A DNA stretch of 64,000 nt, from sequence record NC_047749.1. One strand, written 5' to 3'. The stretch is from Escherichia phage DT571/2. The notes under the pieces are model-generated. The model did no database searches. It was not told the origin of the DNA and saw only the letters and a list, made by a program, of their open reading frames with translations. A program made the position numbers and the translations under genes. Below, in pieces: positions 1 through 8,725 of this stretch. Position 1 is the first letter of the stretch. Every line of letters begins with the position of its first letter.

Positions 1-73
1 GCTCACCGCCGGAGGCGAAAATACTTAGTCTGCTAACCGCCACCCCCCGTTACTATTACTCTGCTAACTATTT

Positions 74-102
74 CACCTTGCAACCATTTTAATTGCAAGG
101 TG
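74..102. other. stable hairpin (10-bp stem CACCTTGCAA / TTGCAAGGTG, 9-nt loop)
   Basis: perfect inverted repeat read directly; lies just past the dmp stop. Confidence 0.5.
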
Positions 103-123
103 AAACAAATTCAACTGTAATTA

Positions 124-858
124 TTACGCTACTTTTAATTTCTCAATATATTGTTGTGGGCTGCAACTATATTCTGCGCGCTCCTCCTCGGTCATACCTT
201 CCCAACATAATTGCAAGCGGTCGGCTAGGAACTGATAATCATTATCATCTTCAAGAGATTCATCAATAAAGGTTTCGCCGATCAATGTGACGCCTATTGA
301 TAGAATATCGTTAACGGCTTGCGCGTCCAGCGTTTTAAATCCATATGCCGCCGCCGCTGATAATACGCCTTTATGATCATCAATCATCGTGAAATCAGCG
401 TTCGGATATAGCTGTTTGAATAGCTCAAAATAATGGCTTTTATATATAGCGTCTTTACTGTGGTATATTTCGCTAACCTTATCAGCCGTAAAATATTTGT
501 GAAGTGTATCGCGGGAAAATACGCGGATATTGCTATTCCCACGCCCTCGCAGACCTTGTTTGCGCAAATAATAATAATCCGACTTACTCATCAGGCGAGC
601 GGTGCAAATAATGTTTAACGTGTTGGCGTCATTCATGCATTGGCGCATATAGGTAACGAGCGGCAAAAGCGTATCCTGCATTATTAACTCATGTTTGCAC
701 GCTTCATTTTTATACTTATTTAAATCTAAATCGCCTTCAATATCAAAGCAAGGCGCTACACGGTGGGCGGAGTTAATGATCGTGCCGTCCAGATCCCAAA
801 TCATTACGCGGGAAATATGCGGGTAATTGCGGGAAATATTCTTTTTATCTTGATTCAT
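124..858 (-). CDS. dmp: 5'-deoxyribonucleotidase, HAD superfamily (T5 Dmp-like)
   Basis: 244-aa ORF; HAD motif I DxDGT (MIWDLDGTII) near N-terminus; first gene at left end as in T5. Confidence 0.8.
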   Translation of the reverse strand: MNQDKKNISRNYPHISRVMIWDLDGTIINSAHRVAPCFDIEGDLDLNKYKNEACKHELIMQDTLLPLVTYMRQCMNDANTLNIICTARLMSKSDYYYLRKQGLRGRGNSNIRVFSRDTLHKYFTADKVSEIYHSKDAIYKSHYFELFKQLYPNADFTMIDDHKGVLSAAAAYGFKTLDAQAVNDILSIGVTLIGETFIDESLEDDNDYQFLADRLQLCWEGMTEEERAEYSCSPQQYIEKLKVA

Positions 859-932
859 TTTGTTACGTTCTCCATTAAAGGGATTAAGTTAATTTAATCC
901 AGCCCATACAGTGGGCTGGAGTATTTCAGTCA

Positions 933-1334
933 TTAAAATACCAGACCATAAGCCAAAGCATCAGCGATAACAGTAATATCCTCGCCAGATACACCGGAAC
1001 GAATACCGGCGCATGTAAATACCTTCGCGCTCATTAACTGATCATCAAGACAAGCGGGGCAAGGCGCGACAACTGCGAAAGCTAAACCAGCTTTTGCGGC
1101 GTCAATAATAGTCGTTTCTTGTTTCATCGTATCAATGTAAACGCCTTTCGCCTTGATGCGGCTAGATAGCTTGCCCGTGGTGTAGGCGAAAGTAGTGATC
1201 TGTAGCGCCTCATTAAATTCGATTAAGTCATCAACAACGTGCCCCGCCTCGACGTGATAGCGCTCACCGGTAGAATAAACTAGGACGATTGCAGACTGCG
1301 CGCGATCGAATGGGATACGGTTGTAAGTAGTCAT
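933..1334 (-). CDS. pre-early protein, A2-like by size and position
   Basis: 133-aa ORF between dmp and A1; no motif recognised. Confidence 0.55.
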   Translation of the reverse strand: MTTYNRIPFDRAQSAIVLVYSTGERYHVEAGHVVDDLIEFNEALQITTFAYTTGKLSSRIKAKGVYIDTMKQETTIIDAAKAGLAFAVVAPCPACLDDQLMSAKVFTCAGIRSGVSGEDITVIADALAYGLVF

Positions 1335-1403
1335 GCGTATAACTCCAATTAATTTAATAAACTTTTATGGCGGCGGTATATTTCGCCCGCCCGCCTGATT
1401 TAT

Positions 1404-3068
1404 TTACGCGAAAAATTTGCCGTTTTTAAAGTCGATTAACGTGCGCTGCCCGTTTGCATATGTAATTACATGCGTTTGCGTCCAGCTTGATGCGCCGACG
1501 TTGTAGCCCATATCGAGGCTGCCCGATACGCCAGCAGTATATACGCCGCCGTAAATGCTGGCGGTATGGGTGTGCCCCGTGTTTAATTTGCCCAACTTTT
1601 TAAATTGCTTCGGATTGCCGCGGCTCCCGTTGATGCCGTTGTGACCGTGTACGCCGCACTCAATGCCTGCAATCTTGAATGATTGATCAGTCGTTAGGAA
1701 TATGGCGTTAAACTCACAGCCTGCAACCTTGCGCAGCGCATAATCCAGCACGTTGAAAGTATCGTCATTTTCTGCAATAGCTCCATAGATCGCGGCGTTG
1801 AGGCGGTGATATAGCTCTGCGTTTGCTGGATCGTCTTTAATGTTAGCGTTGCGATCATCCAGCCAACGGGATAACGCCAGATCGTGGTTTGACTCAACAA
1901 TGATTGTTTGCGAGAAATCGCGCTCCATTGATTCCAATACACGCCCCGTGTCGATAAGATCATCTAAAACCTTATCACGTCCGGCGGCGTACTGTTTTGC
2001 TAGGAATACGCCAGATGCGCGATTGTGGTGGTTGCGTGATGTAAAGTCATGCACATCATGCACGAACTGATATTTAGGTTTAAGAATATCAAGCAAACTA
2101 TTTTCGCCCGCCCATGACGCTTCAGCACACGCCTTATCTAATTTTTCAGCGTGCACGTCGCCATACTGTAAACCTAAAACATGCCCCGATGTTTCATAAC
2201 ATCCGGCGGGAGTGGCGCAAATATTCAAATCATAAAAAACGCCGGTTTCATCCATCGTCTCAAGCTGGCGAACAAAAAATGCCCCGTCCTCGTCAAACTC
2301 GACAATCAGCGCGCCAAAGTTATGTAACGCTTCGGCCTTTTGCCCTGCTTTCTGCTGAATGTAGTTTTTTAGCGTTGCCGCTCCCGTTGAGTACATACGG
2401 CGCACTACTTCACCTTTGAGCGCTGGAACGCTTTCTGCGGTGATTTTAGCTGCTCCAATTGCCAAACCTTCAAGATCAAGCGCTGTTGCAGTCTCAGCGA
2501 ATCCAGAAAGCGGGTAGTCTGCCGTTGGCAAAACATTAATCTCAGCCATGAAAGCAAAGCGGCGACTATTTAAAAACACGTTTTTATTACAGATATATTT
2601 ATCAAAAGCGGAATCATATTTGATCCCGTCCGCACCTTCTCCATTCTGGAATCCTTTTTTGTTATAAATGAACTTGCTAACCAGCAAATCAGCGCCGATA
2701 AATTGGGCGTAATGTTCAAGTGAGGCTAAAAAGTTTTTATGCGGGAACGTGTTGTTCTGGATTGATGTTATAATGAAGCGTTTGCCCTGCTTTACTTCCC
2801 ACTGTTCAACCGTGCTAGAAATAATTCCCGCCGCCTCTGGGCGCTCGTCGTTTTTAACGGCTTTTGATGCTTTCGCCTCTTTTGGTTTCGCTGGTTTGTT
2901 TGCTTCCAGCCAATCACAAATTGCGGTCGAATGTTTTGCCGTATCGTACACCGCTTTTGATATATCGTCGCAGACTTCCAATCTAGTAGCGCGCAGACGT
3001 TTACCGTAAAAATTAAAATCAGCGGCCAGCTTCAGGATAACGGTTTGTTTTTCTGCGGAAATAACCAT
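1404..3068 (-). CDS. A1: pre-early protein A1-like, calcineurin-type metallophosphoesterase (probable nuclease)
   Basis: 554-aa ORF; phosphoesterase motifs GDVHAE, VESNHD, GVHGH, GHTHT; size and position match T5 A1. Confidence 0.8.
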   Translation of the reverse strand: MVISAEKQTVILKLAADFNFYGKRLRATRLEVCDDISKAVYDTAKHSTAICDWLEANKPAKPKEAKASKAVKNDERPEAAGIISSTVEQWEVKQGKRFIITSIQNNTFPHKNFLASLEHYAQFIGADLLVSKFIYNKKGFQNGEGADGIKYDSAFDKYICNKNVFLNSRRFAFMAEINVLPTADYPLSGFAETATALDLEGLAIGAAKITAESVPALKGEVVRRMYSTGAATLKNYIQQKAGQKAEALHNFGALIVEFDEDGAFFVRQLETMDETGVFYDLNICATPAGCYETSGHVLGLQYGDVHAEKLDKACAEASWAGENSLLDILKPKYQFVHDVHDFTSRNHHNRASGVFLAKQYAAGRDKVLDDLIDTGRVLESMERDFSQTIIVESNHDLALSRWLDDRNANIKDDPANAELYHRLNAAIYGAIAENDDTFNVLDYALRKVAGCEFNAIFLTTDQSFKIAGIECGVHGHNGINGSRGNPKQFKKLGKLNTGHTHTASIYGGVYTAGVSGSLDMGYNVGASSWTQTHVITYANGQRTLIDFKNGKFFA

Positions 3069-3165
3069 AATATTAAAACTCCATTAAAGGGATTAAGAAC
3101 GTTTGTTATTGGCAAATATTGCCAAATATAACGCTGCTTATTAACAGCGTTATAATTTGCAATAC

Positions 3166-3411
3166 TTAACTGATCGGCATCAGGCTAGAACTAACACCAC
3201 AAACAACGGCGGTAATAAAACAAAATAAGCCTAAACGCTTTGCTAACTTTGATTTGCGTTTAAAGTAATATGAATCCAGATCATTCTGGAAATAAGCGAA
3301 CAATAATGAGGCCGCTACAATAAATAAACCTAGAATTAACGATTCAGTGGGATAAAAGATCATTTTAATAATTCCAGTTAAAGGGAAATTATAGTGGGGA
3401 ATATTCCCCAC
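3166..3411 (-). CDS. small membrane protein
   Basis: 81-aa ORF with two hydrophobic segments. Confidence 0.5.
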   Translation of the reverse strand: MGNIPHYNFPLTGIIKMIFYPTESLILGLFIVAASLLFAYFQNDLDSYYFKRKSKLAKRLGLFCFITAVVCGVSSSLMPIS

Positions 3412-3420
3412 TAATTAAAT

Positions 3421-3837
3421 TTATTCACCTGCGGATTGTTTTACTTCATCTGCTACGCCTAGTAATTGCGCTACGGCGTCCAGCGTTTCTAATTTTGCGC
3501 TTTCCAGACTTGCCAGATCGTCGGCGTCTTTGATAATGCCGGAATCAATGGCATGTTTAGCAATAACGCGCACATAATGCGCCTTGCGGATTGAACTACC
3601 GCCGCCAACTTTGCGCGGTTTATCGCTTTTCTGATACGCTTTTGCGCTGGTCAATTTTGAGCGAACAGACACAGGGGAAGTAGCGCCCACTGTTTTGGCG
3701 ATCTCTTTCAGGCCGTCGCTGTTTGCGAACTCTAAACCGTTTTCATTGATTAATTGCTGATACATAGAAACGGCTTTTTGGGTATTTTCTTCATTCCATG
3801 CAAATTTTGCGGATTTTTCGGTTTTAACGTTAGTCAT
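3421..3837 (-). CDS. hypothetical pre-early protein
   Basis: 138-aa ORF, tightly packed in leftward operon. Confidence 0.55.
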   Translation of the reverse strand: MTNVKTEKSAKFAWNEENTQKAVSMYQQLINENGLEFANSDGLKEIAKTVGATSPVSVRSKLTSAKAYQKSDKPRKVGGGSSIRKAHYVRVIAKHAIDSGIIKDADDLASLESAKLETLDAVAQLLGVADEVKQSAGE

Positions 3838-3937
3838 GGTATAAACTCCAATTAATTTAATTTAAGGGATAAGATTAACATAATGTTAATCGTTATATTT
3901 CCCCAATAGTTCGGGGAAATATAAAGTTAACACTAAA

Positions 3938-4189
3938 CTATGCTACAGCTTCCAATTTTTCGTTACGTTGAACAACTTTTACAACGTCGCCAGATTTAAC
4001 GCGAACACTAAAAACGGTTTTTCCGTTGTTGCTACGTTCCGTTTCTGCATATACTGCATCAATTACATCGAACGGCATGAGCGCCGCGCCTTTGATGCGT
4101 TCGGCCTTTCCGGTTGCCTCGTCTGTTTTAGTAACGAAAGGGATGAAAACGGATTGACCAATTTTTGGCGCGGTGATAGCGTTTTTCAT
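3938..4189 (-). CDS. hypothetical protein
   Basis: 83-aa ORF. Confidence 0.5.
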   Translation of the reverse strand: MKNAITAPKIGQSVFIPFVTKTDEATGKAERIKGAALMPFDVIDAVYAETERSNNGKTVFSVRVKSGDVVKVVQRNEKLEAVA

Positions 4190-4423
4190 GGTATAAACTC
4201 CAGTTATTTGATGGATTGTTCCGCATTACCTGCTAAAAAATAATAACAGGTAATAAGAAAAAATCCGCTCACCGTTAAAATCAATTTAAGGAACTCCACA
4301 CAGGCCGCTATATCCCGTTAGGGGGCGGGGCACATTATGGCAAGTACCGGCCGTCAAATTTTACCAAGTTATCGCTCTTGTTGAATCGGGTACATTTTAA
4401 AGCCTATCGGCTAGGGCGTCAAA

Positions 4424-4594
4424 TTATTTTTCGTTTTCTTTTAAATTAGAATTCTCCCAACTGAATTGCATCTCGCAAAATATTTTCCCATCTTTATGAT
4501 GGTAAGCGATCTCGCTCCCGTGGTTAGCACAGAAAGCGATCACTGCCTCAGCTTGTTCTACCGTGATATTGTTGGCCGTTTCTTTGATTTTCAT
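4424..4594 (-). CDS. small hypothetical protein (56 aa, not in ORF track)
   Basis: manual translation MKIKETANNITVEQ...; AAGGAG Shine-Dalgarno 8 nt upstream of ATG. Confidence 0.45.
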   Translation of the reverse strand: MKIKETANNITVEQAEAVIAFCANHGSEIAYHHKDGKIFCEMQFSWENSNLKENEK

Positions 4595-5220
4595 ATCGTC
4601 GTCTCCTTATAAGGTTAATAAGTTTGCCGCCGATGGGCTTTAAAATGCACCTGATTTTTAAAGAGCGCGGCGGTAAACTTTCCGCCGTGTAGTTCGTCAT
4701 TGCCGCCCTACGAGATAAATAATAGGGAATACCCAAAAAAGGTGCAACCTTAATTTTGTAAAGAAATGTAAAGAAAGCAAATACCCGCACCGCGTCCGGC
4801 GATCGCCCAAGTTTAAAGGAAACAGGCGCGCGGATACCATAAAACCGAGCTGATTGGCAAGTAATTTTTTCATTTTTATTTGCCTTGCCCTACTTGACAA
4901 AACTTAAAAAGCTCGTGGTGACGATAAACGGGCTATCCCTTTATGATGGGATACCTGAAAAATTTACCGCGTTGTAGGACGTTTTAGGCCGCTTATCTTC
5001 GATTTAACAAATATTTAACAAAAGCAAAATTGAAAAATAGTTTGAGAAGGTATTGACTTTTTAAAATCAAGACTAAACGAGTTATTTTAAAAAATTAATT
5101 AATTGACTTTTATTTGTTGTTGTGTAGTAGAAAGATAGCAGACTAATAATTGCTAGAATGATAATCATGCTGGTGATTGTAACAGACTGAACTATTAGCA
5201 GACTACTGATCCCGGAAAAT

Positions 5221-5260
5221 CTCATTAGCCAACTAACTATCTCATTAGCCAACTAACTAT
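5221..5260. repeat. 20-bp direct repeat x2 (CTCATTAGCCAACTAACTAT)
   Basis: two identical adjacent copies. Confidence 0.9.
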
Positions 5261-5270
5261 TTCATAAGTT

Positions 5271-5450
5271 ATAATAACTATAAAAATAATCACCGTTAAA
5301 ATAATCACTATAAAAATAATCACCATTAAAATAATAACTATAGAAATAATCACCATTATAATAATCACCATTAAAATAATCACTATAAAAATAATCACCA
5401 TTAAAATAATCACTATAAAAATAATCACCATTATTATAATCACTATAAGA
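5271..5450. repeat. 15-bp tandem repeat, about 12 copies (ATAATCACYRTTAAA)
   Basis: read directly; the 68-aa ORF 5237..5443 is its translation artefact. Confidence 0.9.
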
Positions 5451-5486
5451 AACTATCGGCTTAAGTGAGAACCACTATCATTTAAG

Positions 5487-5568
5487 TTATCCACAACGTT
5501 ATCCACAGCACAAAATGATTTGACACGATAGGCGGCGATATAAAGATTTATCCACAGACTTATCCACA
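5487..5568. promoter_or_regulatory. DnaA-box cluster, 4 perfect TTATCCACA in direct orientation
   Basis: boxes at 5487, 5499, 5548, 5560; two imperfect boxes follow to about 5600. Confidence 0.7.
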
Positions 5569-5872
5569 GGTTATCCTACTGTATATTTATCCAGGGTAAA
5601 AAGATAGTGTTTACAACTGCAATCAATTTTGAGCGGCCTAAAACGCTTTCTAACGAGCTGATCGCTGTAGGGTAATATTAAAGTAAAGCCTTTACCCGTC
5701 GGCCTAGAGGCTTCGCCGTGTTTTGCTCTTTACTGCACCGCTGCGCGGTTAGCATAAAACTAGGTGTTAGGCAAGAAAAATAAAAAGTAAAGTAAACGTT
5801 GCCCCTAGAAAGAAAATAATTTTACCGGTAACATCGAAAGCGGGTAATAATTAACCTAATGTAAAGTTTTGT

Positions 5873-5901
5873 AAGGCCCGCCATAATCAGCGGCCTTTTT
5901 T
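5873..5901 (+). terminator. putative rho-independent terminator
   Basis: stem AAGGCC/GGCCTT with 13-nt loop followed by TTTTTT. Confidence 0.45.
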
Positions 5902-5965
5902 GTTATACTGCCCTTACACCGTTTAAGGACGGTTAAAAATTTCCCGAAAAATTTGGAGGCTTAAA

Positions 5966-6145
5966 ATGGTTATTTTTCGATCTATTCTGGCGGGTATCTT
6001 GGGCGCTATTTTAACTCTATTTGCTACCGCTTACGGTATTCAAGATTCTTATTGCGGTTTAGTAAATACTAAACCTATGGTTATTATTGGCGCGGGTATC
6101 GCTGTTTTTTCTTATTTGCTGGGCTGCATGAATAAAGGAGAATAA
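5966..6145 (+). CDS. small membrane protein (59 aa, not in ORF track)
   Basis: GGAGG SD then ATG; hydrophobic translation MVIFRSILAGILGAILTLFATAYG... Confidence 0.45.
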   Translation: MVIFRSILAGILGAILTLFATAYGIQDSYCGLVNTKPMVIIGAGIAVFSYLLGCMNKGE

Positions 6146-6147
6146 AA

Positions 6148-6360
6148 ATGATCCGCAACGTTTCTCTTGCTCGTTCCAAAGGTTTTAAGCTGGTGGATGT
6201 AAACACGTTCGAGCGTCCTGGTTGTAAAATCGAATATATAGCGCGGAATAAAAACGCTTTCCGCGTTACAGAAAAGAGATTCGATAAACGCGGCAACGTG
6301 ATAGCTGAAACGGTTAAATATTTTGCCACCTTTTACGCGGCCTTTCGTGGGGTATTATGA
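6148..6360 (+). CDS. hypothetical protein
   Basis: 70-aa ORF with AGGAG SD. Confidence 0.5.
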   Translation: MIRNVSLARSKGFKLVDVNTFERPGCKIEYIARNKNAFRVTEKRFDKRGNVIAETVKYFATFYAAFRGVL

Positions 6361-6482
6361 AGAGCGTTGTTATTGTTATCCTTGCAATGGTTGGCGGTTT
6401 TACCACCACCTTGTTTAGAAATGATCCTCTTTTGCTAGGGATCTTTATGCTTTTATCTGGTTATCTGATCGGGAGGTTATAA
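6357..6482 (+). CDS. small membrane peptide (41 aa)
   Basis: ATGA start/stop overlap with upstream ORF; hydrophobic. Confidence 0.35.
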   Translation: MKSVVIVILAMVGGFTTTLFRNDPLLLGIFMLLSGYLIGRL

Positions 6483-6483
6483 A

Positions 6484-6828
6484 ATGGTGATTTATGAAGG
6501 TGATCGCCTTGTTGCTGATTGCCGTCCGGCATTGTTAGCAAACTACTTAAACCAGCTTTCGCCAGTATATAAAGGCGTTATAAATATTTATGAAGGCGGG
6601 GCGCATTATAAGATTAATGCGGTCGTTGCCCGTGAACTAGCGTTTCAATTTTTAACCTTTTCATCTTGCAATATTCAGGTCATGGGTGAGGCGTTAATTG
6701 CAGAAAATGAAGATGATTTTATTAATATCTTTCGCAAGATATGCACCGAGCGCCTGATAATGAAAGGGGCATATATTCAATCCACTGCGGATAGTATTGA
6801 AACGGCTTTTCGAAAGGTGGCACAATGA
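6484..6828 (+). CDS. hypothetical protein
   Basis: 114-aa ORF with GGGAGG SD. Confidence 0.5.
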   Translation: MVIYEGDRLVADCRPALLANYLNQLSPVYKGVINIYEGGAHYKINAVVARELAFQFLTFSSCNIQVMGEALIAENEDDFINIFRKICTERLIMKGAYIQSTADSIETAFRKVAQ

Positions 6829-6966
6829 AGCTATATATTTTCGCGGGTAATGTTGAGGCTGCAAATGATTCCGCTGGTGGCGATAGCGTTCGCCATTATT
6901 GGCAAAATTATATTTACTAGGCGTAATGATCACGGGGCACAACTATCAGGGAGTGCCCCTGATTCT

Positions 6967-6991
6967 CAAATGAGAATCATTCTCATTTGAC
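6967..6991. repeat. 25-bp perfect palindrome TCAAATGAGAAT-C-ATTCTCATTTGA
   Basis: read directly; shares the AATGAGAATCATT core with the downstream 22-bp repeats. Confidence 0.85.
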
Positions 6992-7209
6992 CGCGCCCGC
7001 GATGGTTAGCACACTAATGATTAGGGTGTTACGTGTCGCCTTGTGTGATCGTTAGCGGGCTAACTAATTTTCAAGCCTCCTCCAGATTTGCCCTTGTTTT
7101 AGTATCCCCATCAAAATAAAACGCGTTAGAAAGCGATTCAGGGCGTTTTAGGCCTATATTAGAATTATTCACTGCGTAGGAATACTGTATATTTATACAG
7201 TAGAATAAC

Positions 7210-7292
7210 CTGGGGATAAGTCGGTGGATAACGCTTCAAAATGGCTAGAATTTTGTCAAGGCAAATCGTGCTGTTGATAAGTCTGTGGATAA
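7210..7292. promoter_or_regulatory. DnaA-box cluster in opposite orientation to 5487..5568
   Basis: GTGGATAAC at 7224 and TGTGGATAA at 7284, plus imperfect TGGGGATAA at 7210. Confidence 0.6.
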
Positions 7293-7299
7293 CTTAAAT

Positions 7300-7590
7300 A
7301 ACAGTGTTTCTCACTTCCGTTTTTAAATGCGAATCATTATCATTTGCATTCCACTTCTTAAATGAGAATCATTTCACTTCTTGAATAGTTCTCATTCCCT
7401 TTCTTAAATGAGAATCATTTCACTTCTTGAATAGTTCTCATTTCACTTCTTGAATAGTTCTCATTCCACTTCTTAAATGAGAATCATTCCACTTCTTAAA
7501 TGAGAATCATTCCACCTCTTAAATGAGAATGATTATCATTCGCATTCCACTTCTTAAATGCGAATGATAATCATTCTCATTCGCATTCCG
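7300..7590. repeat. about 10 tandem copies of a 22-bp unit (CACTTCTTAAATGAGAATCATT / CACTTCTTGAATAGTTCTCATT) with flanking short inverted repeats
   Basis: read directly. Confidence 0.85.
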
Positions 7591-7617: not shown

Positions 7618-8350
7618 TGTGCAAATCCGACAATTGCTCCAAGGGTTACGCGAGGGCATGTATGTGCAAATCCGACCCATTTTTTGGTAGTGTGCAAATC
7701 CGACCCCAAAAATTTATAAATTCGTGAGAGTGACAAATCTGTCTCCCAAAAACTCCAGCAATCACGAACTGCGTTCGAATCCTGTGGGGTATGTGCAAAT
7801 CCGACACGGTTTTTCTAGGATTAAGATGTGCGAATCCGATGAAATTTTTGTGACTTCGATGAGAGGGTGTGTGATTGTATAGGTTTGAGGAGAAGATGAG
7901 AGAGCGAGAAAAATTTTGGGGCTAGAAGTGTATGGGCGCAGGATTGGTGCGGAGCACCTGATTTGCGGGGGTTTTGGGGGATAGTGGAGATAATTTGGGG
8001 AAATTTGAGATAGGTGCAGAAAAAGTAAAATTTTATTAGCTAAAGGGGGCAATATAGCTTGACAATTGAAAATTCTTGTGGCTCTAAAAACTCAGGCAAT
8101 CATGGGCCTTCGGCCCGAAATAATGCTGCTATTTTCAGGAGATTATATGTTCCTAAAAACTTAGGCGTTTGTGCAAATCCGACCATAAATTTCTAGAAAC
8201 ACAATGTGCAAATCCGACAGTAATTCCTGGAAATGTGTTTTCAAAAAATGTCTCCTAGAAATAACCGCCCTCCCTATAACCGCCCTCCCTATAACCGGCC
8301 TAGGTATGTAACGTTGGAGGGAAACTGCCCTAGAATATGTGCAAATCCGA
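7618..8350 (+). repeat. dispersed co-oriented 14-mer TGTGCAAATCCGAC, 8 copies
   Basis: copies at 7618, 7663, 7691, 7792, 7827 (variant), 8170, 8205, 8338; several preceded by CTAGAA. Confidence 0.85.
8261..8297. repeat. 15-bp tandem repeat x2.5 (ATAACCGCCCTCCCT)
   Basis: read directly. Confidence 0.85.
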
Positions 8351-8725
8351 TTAATATTTTTGTGTGATCCCTAGAATTTGTGCTTATCAATTTCCTAGAA
8401 ACTTAGGAGTCTGCTAGAAAGTGTTGAGCCATCCTAGCAGATGAGCGGCAACCGGTGTATCATCTTGAACACAGATATTGCCTTTAAATTTTTATCAGTT
8501 ATTTAAAAGTAAATAGTCCCCCATTTCATGTGAGATTCCTCGTGGGGCGCGTGAGTATTACGGAAGACTTAGTAATTAGATCTATACTCGTGCTGTCGCA
8601 ACGTATAGACGTAATACTAAGTGTAATAATCATCGCCCCTAGAGTTCAAAACAAGAGTTGTTTTTAATCTATGAGATTATTATAACATGTTTGGGTATGA
8701 GAATGCAAGAACTTTTTGTTAACGT

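Follow-up and report, generated by a model that had tools for sequence, protein, structure and literature searches.

The stretch of DNA analyzed here (the window, 64,000 nucleotides) corresponds to positions 1-64000 of phage DT57C at 100% identity. Between positions 5966 and 6930, the ORF map shows five translationally coupled open reading frames on the plus strand, namely, ORF59 (DT57C_000009, 5966..6145), the T5.013 orthologue of 59 aa and 6.2 kDa; ORF70 (DT57C_000010, 6148..6360), the T5.014 orthologue, a soluble, basic protein of 70 aa and 8.1 kDa with a pI of 10.3; ORF41 (6357..6482), with 41 aa, 4.5 kDa and two hydrophobic segments; ORF114 (DT57C_000011, 6484..6828), the T5.015 orthologue, an acidic, soluble protein of 114 aa and 12.8 kDa; and ORF31 (6825..6920), with 31 aa and 3.6 kDa, hydrophilic and acidic. 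The first-pass annotation had proposed four to five such back-to-back rightward ORFs, and all five were recovered on the plus strand at the coordinates given there. Its statement that three are missing from the ORF track applies to the 59-, 41- and 31-aa frames, because they fall below the usual 60-aa cutoff, but in the GenBank record of DT57C only ORF41 and ORF31 lack a CDS. The annotated genes on either side (124-5431 and 8726 onward) are all located on the minus strand, and the block is thus, as had been noted, oriented opposite to every neighbor, including the dmp-A1-A2 genes (annotation and ORF map). It is present in 391 phage records and occurs twice in the DT57C record.

Overlapping stop/start codons had been claimed for the whole series; ATGA overlaps are indeed found at the 70/41-aa and 114/31-aa junctions, whereas the 59/70-aa and 41/114-aa junctions are gaps of 2 nt and 1 nt, respectively. 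Each start is preceded by a Shine-Dalgarno (SD)-like sequence, in agreement with the earlier description (GGAGG, AAGGAG, GTGGGG, GGGAGG and AAGGTGG for ORF59, ORF70, ORF41, ORF114 and ORF31), with anti-SD duplex energies of -6.1 to -11.0 kcal/mol compared to random ATGs of the window, for which the median is -2.2 and the 5th percentile -6.4 kcal/mol. The five ORFs tile 99.7% of positions 5966-6920; coverage averaged 31% among 2,000 dinucleotide-preserving shuffles, with a maximum of 81%, and none of them reached 90%. Both the tiling and the SD strength are far beyond chance. In 12 to 25 distinct relatives, all five frames remain intact and show purifying selection: no in-frame stop was present in the 9 to 25 distinct relatives available per gene, third-position bias is strong, and in-frame pN/pS values, which are pooled pairwise p-distances from related and hence nonindependent sequences, range from 0.08 to 0.25 versus 0.45 to 3.4 in the out-of-frame controls. 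Every product matches a PHROG family (E values between 1e-23 and 2e-62), whereas none of the five scored above threshold in Pfam or NCBIfam scans, and PDB sequence searches found no relatives. Hydropathy analysis bears out the two membrane peptides that had been predicted, with hydrophobic hairpins in the 59-aa and 41-aa products, and indicates that the remaining three are soluble.

The block is situated, as first described, between two clusters of DnaA boxes, which lie within the arms of an inverted repeat outside the operon. The left arm (5463..5594, 132 nt, IRC-spacer-IRD of Wang/Davison) and the right arm (7185..7316, IRD'-spacer-IRC') are 77% complementary according to a repeat search. 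Perfect DnaA boxes, TTATCCACA, occur 5 times in the window compared to an expectation of 0.75; four are located at 5487-5568, arranged as two pairs (5487-5507 and 5548-5568) with 3 bp between paired boxes, and one at 7284-7292 in the right arm, which contains three variant boxes in addition. Such 132-nt DnaA-box inverted repeats have been described for T5-like phages by Davison, and the right arm belongs to the proposed injection-stop region (bioRxiv 10.1101/866236).

Immediately upstream of the block, a terminator-like hairpin on the plus strand (5873..5901, AAGGCC-GC ... GCGGCCTT, followed by a T6 run) is not exceptional by its RNA fold alone (-10.5 kcal/mol, z -1.3), but its stem is retained and its loop variable in 21 distinct relatives. 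It aligns to positions 7534-7559 of T5, annotated as a "putative rho-independent terminator" after T5.011, the coding sequence of which is deleted upstream of the hairpin in DT57C. The hairpin abuts a candidate extended -10 element on the same strand (5901..5909, TGTTATACT; TGTTATAAT in nearly all relatives). The TGnTATAAT motif recurs at 21 of 21 aligned loci, and only DT57C (TATACT) and L020 deviate from it, by one base each. Conservation makes it the operon's likely proximal promoter, from which transcription is predicted to start near 5916. This candidate came solely from the comparative alignment, since the two-hexamer promoter scan upstream of 5966, which returned nothing useful and no more hits than expected from shuffles, is blind to an element that has no -35 match. 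In the retained T5.011 (P11) promoter region (approximately 5780-5830), no convincing -35 and -10 hexamers were found. The predicted 5' end of the leader carries a small plus-strand hairpin (5918..5933, ACCGT-ttaagg-ACGGT) that is conserved in the 21-locus alignment; five loci differ in sequence and yet pair (CACC..GGTG). The 3' end of the block is marked by two adjacent plus-strand hairpins (6934..6990), i.e., GGGGCAC..GTGCCCC at 6934-6959 and the palindrome TCAAATGAGAA..TTCTCATTTGA at 6966-6990, with a joint RNA fold of -33.6 kcal/mol (z -5.75) that was not equaled in stability by any of 200 shuffles. Repeat Region 3 begins with these hairpins, which probably represent the transcript end or a 3' stabilizer. 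The first hairpin is kept in most relatives, whereas T5 and three further loci (L026, L035 and L036) have a canonical hairpin plus T-run terminator in its place. An Rfam scan of positions 5300-7500 returned only two subthreshold chance hits.

The counterpart in phage T5 is the T5.011-T5.017 block of the left terminal repeat (AY543070/NC_005859), which occupies the same site between DnaA-box inverted repeats, has the same orientation opposite to dmp-A1-A2, and shows the same order of T5.013, T5.014, T5.015 and the 31-aa ORF, with amino acid identities of 89 to 98%. The leader and ribosome-binding site sequences are also shared, as is a hairpin at the 3' end, although that of T5 is a canonical terminator and that of DT57C a GC hairpin without an immediate U-tract. 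ORF59, ORF70 and ORF114 are cross-referenced to the T5 genes in the GenBank notes of DT57C. DT57C lacks T5.011, T5.012, T5.016 and T5.017; T5.012 and its downstream hairpin were lost through a deletion that fused the leader of T5.012 with the start of T5.013 at a microhomology of 8 nt, AAATGGTT. Conversely, DT57C has the additional 41-aa gene between T5.014 and T5.015. The layout of phage Gostya9 is identical, with five genes (T59_00007-T59_00011; 59, 70, 41, 114 and 31 aa), the same overlaps and a nucleotide identity of 93.6%, and all five are annotated as CDS. Gostya9 differs in the end points of the T5.012 deletion and in the additional annotation of an overlapping frame, T59_00012.

ORF59 is 98% identical to T5.013 over its full length (tblastn), matches phrog_5607 (E 1e-30) and has a pN/pS of 0.22 compared to 0.9-2.0 out of frame; its hydrophobic stretches comprise residues 1-25 and 37-55. 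Overexpression of gene 013 in T5 is toxic and produces lysis-like ghosts (bioRxiv 10.64898/2026.04.02.716235), which is reminiscent of holins and similar proteins that are likewise very short with two hydrophobic segments, as is also the case for ORF41. Holin genes are, however, part of late lysis cassettes, whereas ORF59 and ORF41 are encoded in the pre-early region, and the best Pfam holin match of the two proteins, Phage_holin_10, remained below the cutoff (E 0.088; 13.3 versus 27 bits). The likeness to holins is one of behavior only. A paralogy between ORF59 and ORF41 was not detectable (BLASTP E 0.65).

T5.015 has been reported to bind Ung and to nick AP sites, with a toxicity that is restricted to ung+ cells (Mahata et al. 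2021, PMC8201957). ORF114 is 89% identical to T5.015 (AAS77062.1) over residues 1-114, matches phrog_4379 (E 2e-62) and shows the lowest pN/pS of the block (0.08). It carries every residue that is invariant in the family (G38, E69, T88 and E89, in homologues down to 26% identity), and E37 and G68 are kept in at least 90% of the homologues, which bear a precomputed PF26847 tag. ORF114 is the best candidate for the Ung-dependent abasic-site nickase. The respective UniRef cluster is named "DNA-(apurinic or apyrimidinic site) endonuclease," and UniProt and the papers point to the 114-aa protein, whereas in RefSeq and PHROGs the nickase name sits on the 70-aa protein. ORF70 is 93% identical to T5.014 over its full length (tblastn), belongs to phrog_4227 (E 9e-49), has a pN/pS of 0.10-0.15, and is modeled by AlphaFold2 as a helix, five strands and a helix with a pLDDT of 83, compared to an unreliable model of ORF114 (pLDDT 58). 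When the two models were compared to the PDB with Foldseek, all matches had E values of 0.58 or higher (best E 1.6 for ORF114).

That the 70-aa protein (6148-6360) is the actual nickase, as stated by the RefSeq product names YP_009149791.1 and YP_006842.1 and by the annotation of phrog_4227, is unlikely in our assessment. A basic, lysine-rich protein would suit DNA binding or AP-lyase chemistry, a three-lysine mutant is mentioned in PMC8201957, and the 70-aa protein is called "ORF015" in the alternative T5 record AY587007. Nevertheless, PMC8201957 names T5.015 in a list that follows the locus tags of AY543070, where T5.015 is the 114-aa CDS at 8300-8644; the column and size details in the text of Mahata et al. 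do not discriminate between the two proteins. The same numbering, with 013 as the two-transmembrane protein, was used by an independent laboratory, which found genes 013 and 015 of T5 to be toxic, observed the phenotype of 015 again and described no toxicity of 014 (bioRxiv 10.64898/2026.04.02.716235). The conserved acidic residues E69, E89 and E37 are moreover a property of the 114-aa family. The product name of the 70-aa T5.014 family in RefSeq and PHROGs, [quoted passage not shown] was therefore probably attached to the wrong neighbor, and it is passed on by automatic annotation to hundreds of T5-like genomes.

The two genes without a CDS in DT57C are conserved as well. ORF41, with hydrophobic stretches at residues 1-20 and 23-41, occupies the T5.014/T5.015 interval as an optional cassette, which T5 itself lacks. 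It is already annotated in Gostya9 (T59_00009), SP3 and Bas33 (bas33_0173), matches phrog_19184 (E 4.9e-23, positions 1-41 of 46), and is found at full length in 158 phage records with identities down to 44% (tblastn). Its pN/pS is 0.24 versus 0.5-1.2 out of frame, and a diverged orthologue that is 46% identical and has a TTG start retains the residue pattern. ORF31 corresponds to "ORF017" of the T5 record AY587007, is annotated in Gostya9, SP3 and T5, matches phrog_22819 from end to end (E 3.2e-23, positions 1-31 of 31), and is present at full length in 145 phage records with identities down to 61%. Its length is exactly 31 codons in each of 12 distinct sequences, which come from two genera and three genomic contexts, and 32 codons in one further phage, falkor; its pN/pS is 0.25 versus 1.4-1.7 in the overlapping frame (alignment with 39 variable sites).

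Alternatively, only the 59-, 70- and 114-aa genes might make protein, and the 41- and 31-aa frames would be conserved without a functional peptide, e.g., for spacing, RNA structure or as translational-coupling leaders. Both frames are unannotated in the DT57C record, T5 and many relatives manage without the 41-aa cassette, and the RNA-seq value of bas33_0173 is close to zero (1.6 TPM versus 340-600 in its neighbors; PMC13250531 Dataset S1), but this gene comprises only 126 nt and the low value may be a counting artifact. We regard this reading as improbable in view of pN/pS values of about 0.25 in frame and higher ones in the shifted frames, the constant length and stop position of ORF31, the residue pattern of the distant ORF41 orthologue, good SD sites with ATGA coupling at both ORFs and a PHROG family for each of them. 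The two peptides appear to be members of a variable array. In a set of 25 distinct loci, zero to two micro-genes from at least three families occupy the slot between T5.014 and T5.015, and the slot after T5.015 is filled by at least eight families. Such an array may consist of micro-genes, mostly for small membrane peptides, that are exchanged at start/stop junctions. It is conceivable but rather doubtful that ORF41 and ORF31 are translated pre-early microproteins with specific host targets within this hypervariable array.

Very little speaks for the possibility that the block ends not with ORF31 but with a membrane-like frame of 46 aa that overlaps it on the plus strand (6850-6990), a remnant of the T5.016 frame. 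This frame is open in DT57C, Gostya9 and SP3, has been annotated in Gostya9 as T59_00012, contains a hydrophobic stretch and matches the first 19 to 24 residues, approximately, of the annotated T5.016. On the same bases, however, its pN/pS is the 1.4-1.7 given above as the counterpart of the 31-aa frame. Its length varies (29, 32, 46, 90 and 91 aa), L030 and L032 have lost its first ATG, and falkor has a stop; the SD is weak (-3.9 kcal/mol), no PHROG family is matched, and translation would run through the 3' hairpins. The 46-aa frame is neither under selection nor coding, and the annotated N terminus of T5.016 is probably noncoding, too. Finally, the view that all of the ORFs are chance open frames in a noncoding spacer of the injection-stop repeat region, for which one could invoke their position between repeat regions, described as untranslated by Davison, and a spurious CDS nearby (5237-5431), is refuted for practical purposes by the conservation analysis, i.e., the low pN/pS and strong third-position bias, together with a tiling beyond that of any shuffle, the PHROG matches and the experimentally shown activity of orthologues (PMC8201957).

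Expression data are available for the orthologous blocks. The pre-early promoter P11 of T5 was shown by primer extension (PMC7472727), the whole orthologous block of Bas33 is expressed according to RNA-seq (46-3540 TPM; PMC13250531 Dataset S1), and ten pre-early proteins of Bas33 were detected by proteomics. The deletion of hegG-017 in T5 is viable (bioRxiv 10.64898/2026.04.02.716235). Overall, the block is very probably a shortened rightward pre-early transcription unit in the left terminal repeat, i.e., the first-step-transfer DNA, of the T5-like phage DT57C. The rightward mini-operon of coupled small genes that had been postulated is thereby supported by conserved frames and by the transcription of its counterparts in T5 and Bas33.

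In the proposed scenario, the first ~8% of the genome would enter the cell, and the block would be transcribed by the host sigma-70 RNA polymerase as one polycistronic RNA, as shown for the orthologues of T5 and Bas33. Transcription would probably start at the conserved extended -10 element, possibly with read-through from the T5.011 promoter region that is retained upstream, and would probably end at the 3' hairpins. The five cistrons would be translationally coupled via ATGA overlaps or 1- to 2-nt gaps. The predicted products are a T5.013-type inner-membrane protein with two segments, whose overproduction would damage cell integrity; a small basic protein of the T5.014 type; a 41-aa microprotein forming a hydrophobic hairpin; a T5.015-type protein that would bind the host uracil-DNA glycosylase and nick the abasic sites it creates, thereby arresting host replication and division; and a 31-aa acidic microprotein. 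All five would be accessory host-takeover genes that are dispensable in the laboratory, in a region that appears to gain and lose small genes at gene boundaries. More speculatively, because the genes for membrane peptides adjoin the DnaA-box injection-stop DNA, their transcription and translation, coupled to membrane insertion, might help to tether the first-step DNA to the inner membrane.

The original observation is accordingly correct but ordinary. The literature already covers the block together with its position, transcription class and dispensability, T5.013-T5.015 have been named, and the two other genes are annotated in sister phages and PHROGs, so the mini-operon reading is right but not new. 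The value of the analysis lies mainly in housekeeping, i.e., in the gaps left by two conserved micro-genes in both the GenBank and the RefSeq annotation of DT57C, the noncoding 46-aa frame and the probably misplaced nickase label.

Some further frames in and near the block were rejected. The CDS annotated at 5237-5431 falls within a tandem array of 15-bp units and is a spurious ORF. Of two antisense ORFs, the one at 6694-6942 contains interruptions in 10 of 25 relatives. The other, at 6084-6329, stays open in 24 of 24 relatives and has a pN/pS of 0.16 without a PHROG match, but it is regarded as a mirror-frame artifact: its wobble positions are those of ORF70, so that selection is mimicked.

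The segment 5900-6960 matched phage DT57C (KM979354 / NC_027356) over its full length with 100% identity and identical coordinates in a megablast search of 50,697 phage records, and a homologous segment was present in 391 T5-like phage records; the window thus corresponds to the left end of a Tequintavirus genome, i.e., first-step-transfer (FST) DNA followed by early genes. The region 5966-6920 is a version, shortened by deletion, of the pre-early accessory gene block already known from T5-like phages, and the analysis supports the proposal of the first-pass annotation that these tiny genes form a rightward operon. ORF listing and direct reading placed all five ORFs, named here by product length in amino acids, on the plus strand with ATG starts where they had been claimed: ORF59 (5966-6145), ORF70 (6148-6360), ORF41 (6357-6482), ORF114 (6484-6828), and ORF31 (6825-6920). 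All five starts are preceded by a Shine-Dalgarno-like sequence, as had been noted, and their predicted pairing with the 16S rRNA 3' end (-6.1 to -11.0 kcal/mol) ranks among approximately the best 5-10% of ATGs in the window. The overlapping stop and start codons exist at two junctions (ATGA), whereas the other two have gaps of 1 and 2 nt. Hydropathy identified two hydrophobic segments each in ORF59 and ORF41, in agreement with the two membrane peptides suspected at first, and classified ORF70, ORF114, and ORF31 as soluble. The block also runs against its surroundings, since the annotated genes to the left (124-5431) and right (8726 onward) are all located on the minus strand. That the ORF track omits three ORFs, as reported, is explained by the customary 60-aa threshold; GenBank lacks only ORF41 and ORF31. 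The five ORFs tile 99.7% of 5966-6920, compared to a mean of 31% and a maximum of 81% in 2000 dinucleotide-preserving shuffles; the description of the block is accurate and far from chance.

Reading-frame conservation and synonymous-site analysis, the checks originally suggested, pointed in the same direction. The block was taken from 25 distinct loci (T5, Gostya9, SP3, and 31 IMG/VR loci, de-duplicated), and later also from four Epseptimavirus genomes. Based on pooled Nei-Gojobori p-distances of related sequences, the in-frame pN/pS values were 0.22 for ORF59, 0.10-0.15 for ORF70, 0.24 for ORF41, 0.08 for ORF114, and 0.25 for ORF31, whose alignment contains only 39 variable sites, versus 0.45-3.4 in the two shifted frames of the same alignments, which carry stops in all or nearly all sequences. 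ORF31 has a constant length of 31 codons (32 in falkor) in three contexts, whether it directly follows T5.015, an inserted gene of 53, 61, or 66 aa, or, in EPS7-like phages, a small membrane ORF.

The three annotated CDSs are cross-referenced to T5.013, T5.014, and T5.015 in the DT57C record, and ORF59, ORF70, and ORF114 are 98, 93, and 89% identical to the respective T5 proteins (tblastn). All five products matched PHROGs with E-values between 1e-23 and 2e-62 (ORF59, 5607; ORF70, 4227; ORF41, 19184; ORF114, 4379; ORF31, 22819). The residual value of the analysis lies in three annotation points, the first being that the DT57C record misses the micro-genes ORF41 and ORF31. The sister phage Gostya9 has the same five-gene layout with all five annotated; ORF41 is annotated in SP3, SP1a, and Bas33, and ORF31 corresponds to ORF017 in the T5 record AY587007. 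Full-length products were detected by tblastn in 158 (ORF41) and 145 (ORF31) phage records, the latter gap-free with a lowest identity of 61%.

The second point is an alternative frame over ORF31, which, together with the annotated T5.016 start, is probably spurious. T5.016 as annotated in T5 (AY543070, 8681-8938) begins with MIPLVAI..., and this N-terminal part overlaps the 31-aa ORF in another frame. The frame of this start has a pN/pS of 1.4-1.7 versus 0.25 in the ORF31 frame, has a variable length (29-91 aa), and is interrupted in some phages. The more likely start of T5.016 is an internal ATG (MITLICVK...) just 3' of the 31-aa ORF stop, and the 46-aa DT57C frame at 6850-6990, which overlaps ORF31 and for which no PHROG match was found, would accordingly be a non-coding remnant.

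The third point concerns the nickase, the Ung-dependent abasic-site endonuclease. In RefSeq and PHROGs (phrog_4227), it is the 70-aa T5.014 family that is labeled [quoted passage not shown], whereas UniRef uses "DNA-(apurinic or apyrimidinic site) endonuclease" for the 114-aa T5.015 family; the databases thus disagree between 6148-6360 and 6484-6828 (8086-8298 versus 8300-8644 in T5 NC_005859). Among the cloned genes T5.002-T5.017, T5.008, T5.011, and T5.015 were toxic, and T5.015 was shown to bind Ung and to nick Ung-made abasic sites, resulting in replication and division arrest (Mahata et al., PMC8201957). The gene list of that study follows the AY543070 locus tags, in which T5.015 is the 114-aa CDS, and a second laboratory using the same numbering reproduced the phenotype (bioRxiv 10.64898/2026.04.02.716235). 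Since the other T5 record gives the 70-aa protein the name "ORF015", an off-by-one name transfer is likely. ORF114 is very probably the nickase, and the RefSeq/PHROG name is probably misplaced. A profile search of 1.84 billion representatives yielded 13 matches to the ORF114 family at an E-value of ≤0.001 with identities down to 26%. Remote homologues outside the close T5-like set share 26-44% identity and comprise 112-130 aa. The family has four invariant residues (G38, E69, T88, and E89) and five nearly invariant ones (E37, G68, L91, T107, and R110); these positions are candidate catalytic residues, and the pattern fits an enzyme with acidic catalytic residues. A low-confidence model suggests three beta-hairpin-plus-helix repeats; structure-based attempts added no insight beyond this.

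On the minus strand, 6084-6329 contains an antisense ORF of 81 aa that starts with GTG; it is open in 24 of 24 relatives with a pN/pS of 0.16, an apparent selection that results from third codon positions shared with ORF70, and as a gene this PHROG-less frame is probably a mirror-frame artefact.

Effects of block members have also been reported by Annor et al. (bioRxiv 10.64898/2026.04.02.716235): 013, the sole toxic pre-early protein with two transmembrane segments, causes lysis-like ghosts, 015 is toxic too, deletion of hegG-017 preserves viability, and these genes occur in >75% of Tequintavirus genomes. The orthologous block of Bas33 is expressed at 20 min according to RNA-seq (PMC13250531, Dataset S1), with TPM values of 3540 (T5.011), 2363 (T5.012), 537 (T5.013), 594 (T5.014), ~340 (T5.015), 594 (53-aa gene), 430 (T5.016), and ~46 (T5.017). 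The exception is the 126-nt ORF41 orthologue bas33_0173 (1524-1649 of the Bas33 / HildyBeyeler locus), with 1.6 TPM compared to 340-600 for adjacent genes (PMC13250531), which may be a read-assignment artefact of a short, overlapping gene.

In relatives, the pre-early rightward block is strikingly modular, with the full order T5.011, T5.012, T5.013, T5.014, up to two micro-genes in a first slot, T5.015, up to two variable genes in a second slot, the 31-aa ORF, T5.016, T5.017, and a 37-aa ORF. Both slots are hypervariable (related loci L007-L041). The T5.014/T5.015 slot holds 0-2 genes from at least three families: the ORF41 family (41-47 aa, MKSV..GYLIGRL), a 40-aa family (MIQQIK), and a 35-aa family (MERAIV). 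The slot after T5.015 harbors at least eight different small genes, whose products comprise 45-87 aa and include several membrane peptides. Across the two slots, membrane peptides are frequent, and all junctions are ATGA or near-abutting. According to the DNA alignment, DT57C has lost T5.011 as well as T5.012 and the hairpin 3' of it, and it lacks T5.016 and T5.017 of T5. The T5.012 deletion has fused the start codon of T5.013 to the leader of T5.012, with the microhomology AAATGGTT at the joint. The ORF41 cassette is bordered by the similar short sequences GGGGTATTATGA and GGAGGTTATAAA at the 3' ends of ORF70 and ORF41, a similarity suggesting that it is gained or lost at gene boundaries. DT57C has the smallest terminal repeat, and the rightward region is the most variable FST part (Davison).

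An alignment of 21 distinct loci shows high conservation of the 125 nt that precede the first gene of the T5.012/T5.013 unit. They comprise, in order, the terminator annotated after T5.011 in T5 (a GC hairpin whose loop varies, plus T6), an extended -10 motif TGTTATAAT (DT57C version TGTTATACT, 5901-5909), a short leader hairpin at the would-be RNA 5' end with two alternative versions that both pair, and GGAGG followed by ATG. The module of terminator-like hairpin, extended -10, and leader hairpin (5873-5933) precedes the unit in every T5-like phage examined (21 loci), and it is the inferred proximal promoter. A homologue of the region of P11, an experimentally mapped pre-early promoter (PMC7472727), is retained upstream in DT57C at about 5780-5830 and could likewise drive the operon by transcription past the hairpin. 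The T5.011 deletion places this homologue ~50-100 nt 5' of the old T5.011 terminator hairpin (~5780-5905), so that DT57C may produce a very short orphan transcript or read-through into the operon. The 3' end carries two stable, conserved hairpins (6934-6990; -33.6 kcal/mol, z -5.75), in place of which some relatives have a canonical terminator of hairpin and U-tract. T5 has a GC hairpin (GGGGCG-ttacttt-CGCCCC, 7855-7900 of the T5 locus) between T5.012 and T5.013 that was lost in DT57C; it coincides with a roughly 4-fold RNA drop between the orthologous Bas33 genes and may be an attenuator.

The block lies between DnaA-box clusters, as originally described, with four perfect boxes on the left (5487-5568) and a single perfect box accompanied by variants on the right (7210-7292), each cluster within a 132-nt inverted-repeat arm (5463-5594 and 7185-7316). 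Flanking inverted repeats with eight DnaA boxes have been described, and a role in the injection stop was proposed (Davison, bioRxiv 10.1101/866236). The CDS at 5237-5431 (minus strand), annotated as "repeat completion protein" (MIIIMVIIFIVIIL...), had no PHROG match, is located in a tandem repeat (15 bp x 11.5, 5271-5443), and is probably a spurious ORF. The direct repeats of Repeat Region 3 lie on the right side of the inverted repeat as tandem arrays (periods 23, 69, and 35 bp; CATTCCACTTCTTAAATGAGAAT...; 7347-7582), and they account for a sub-threshold Rfam match to CRISPR-DR34.
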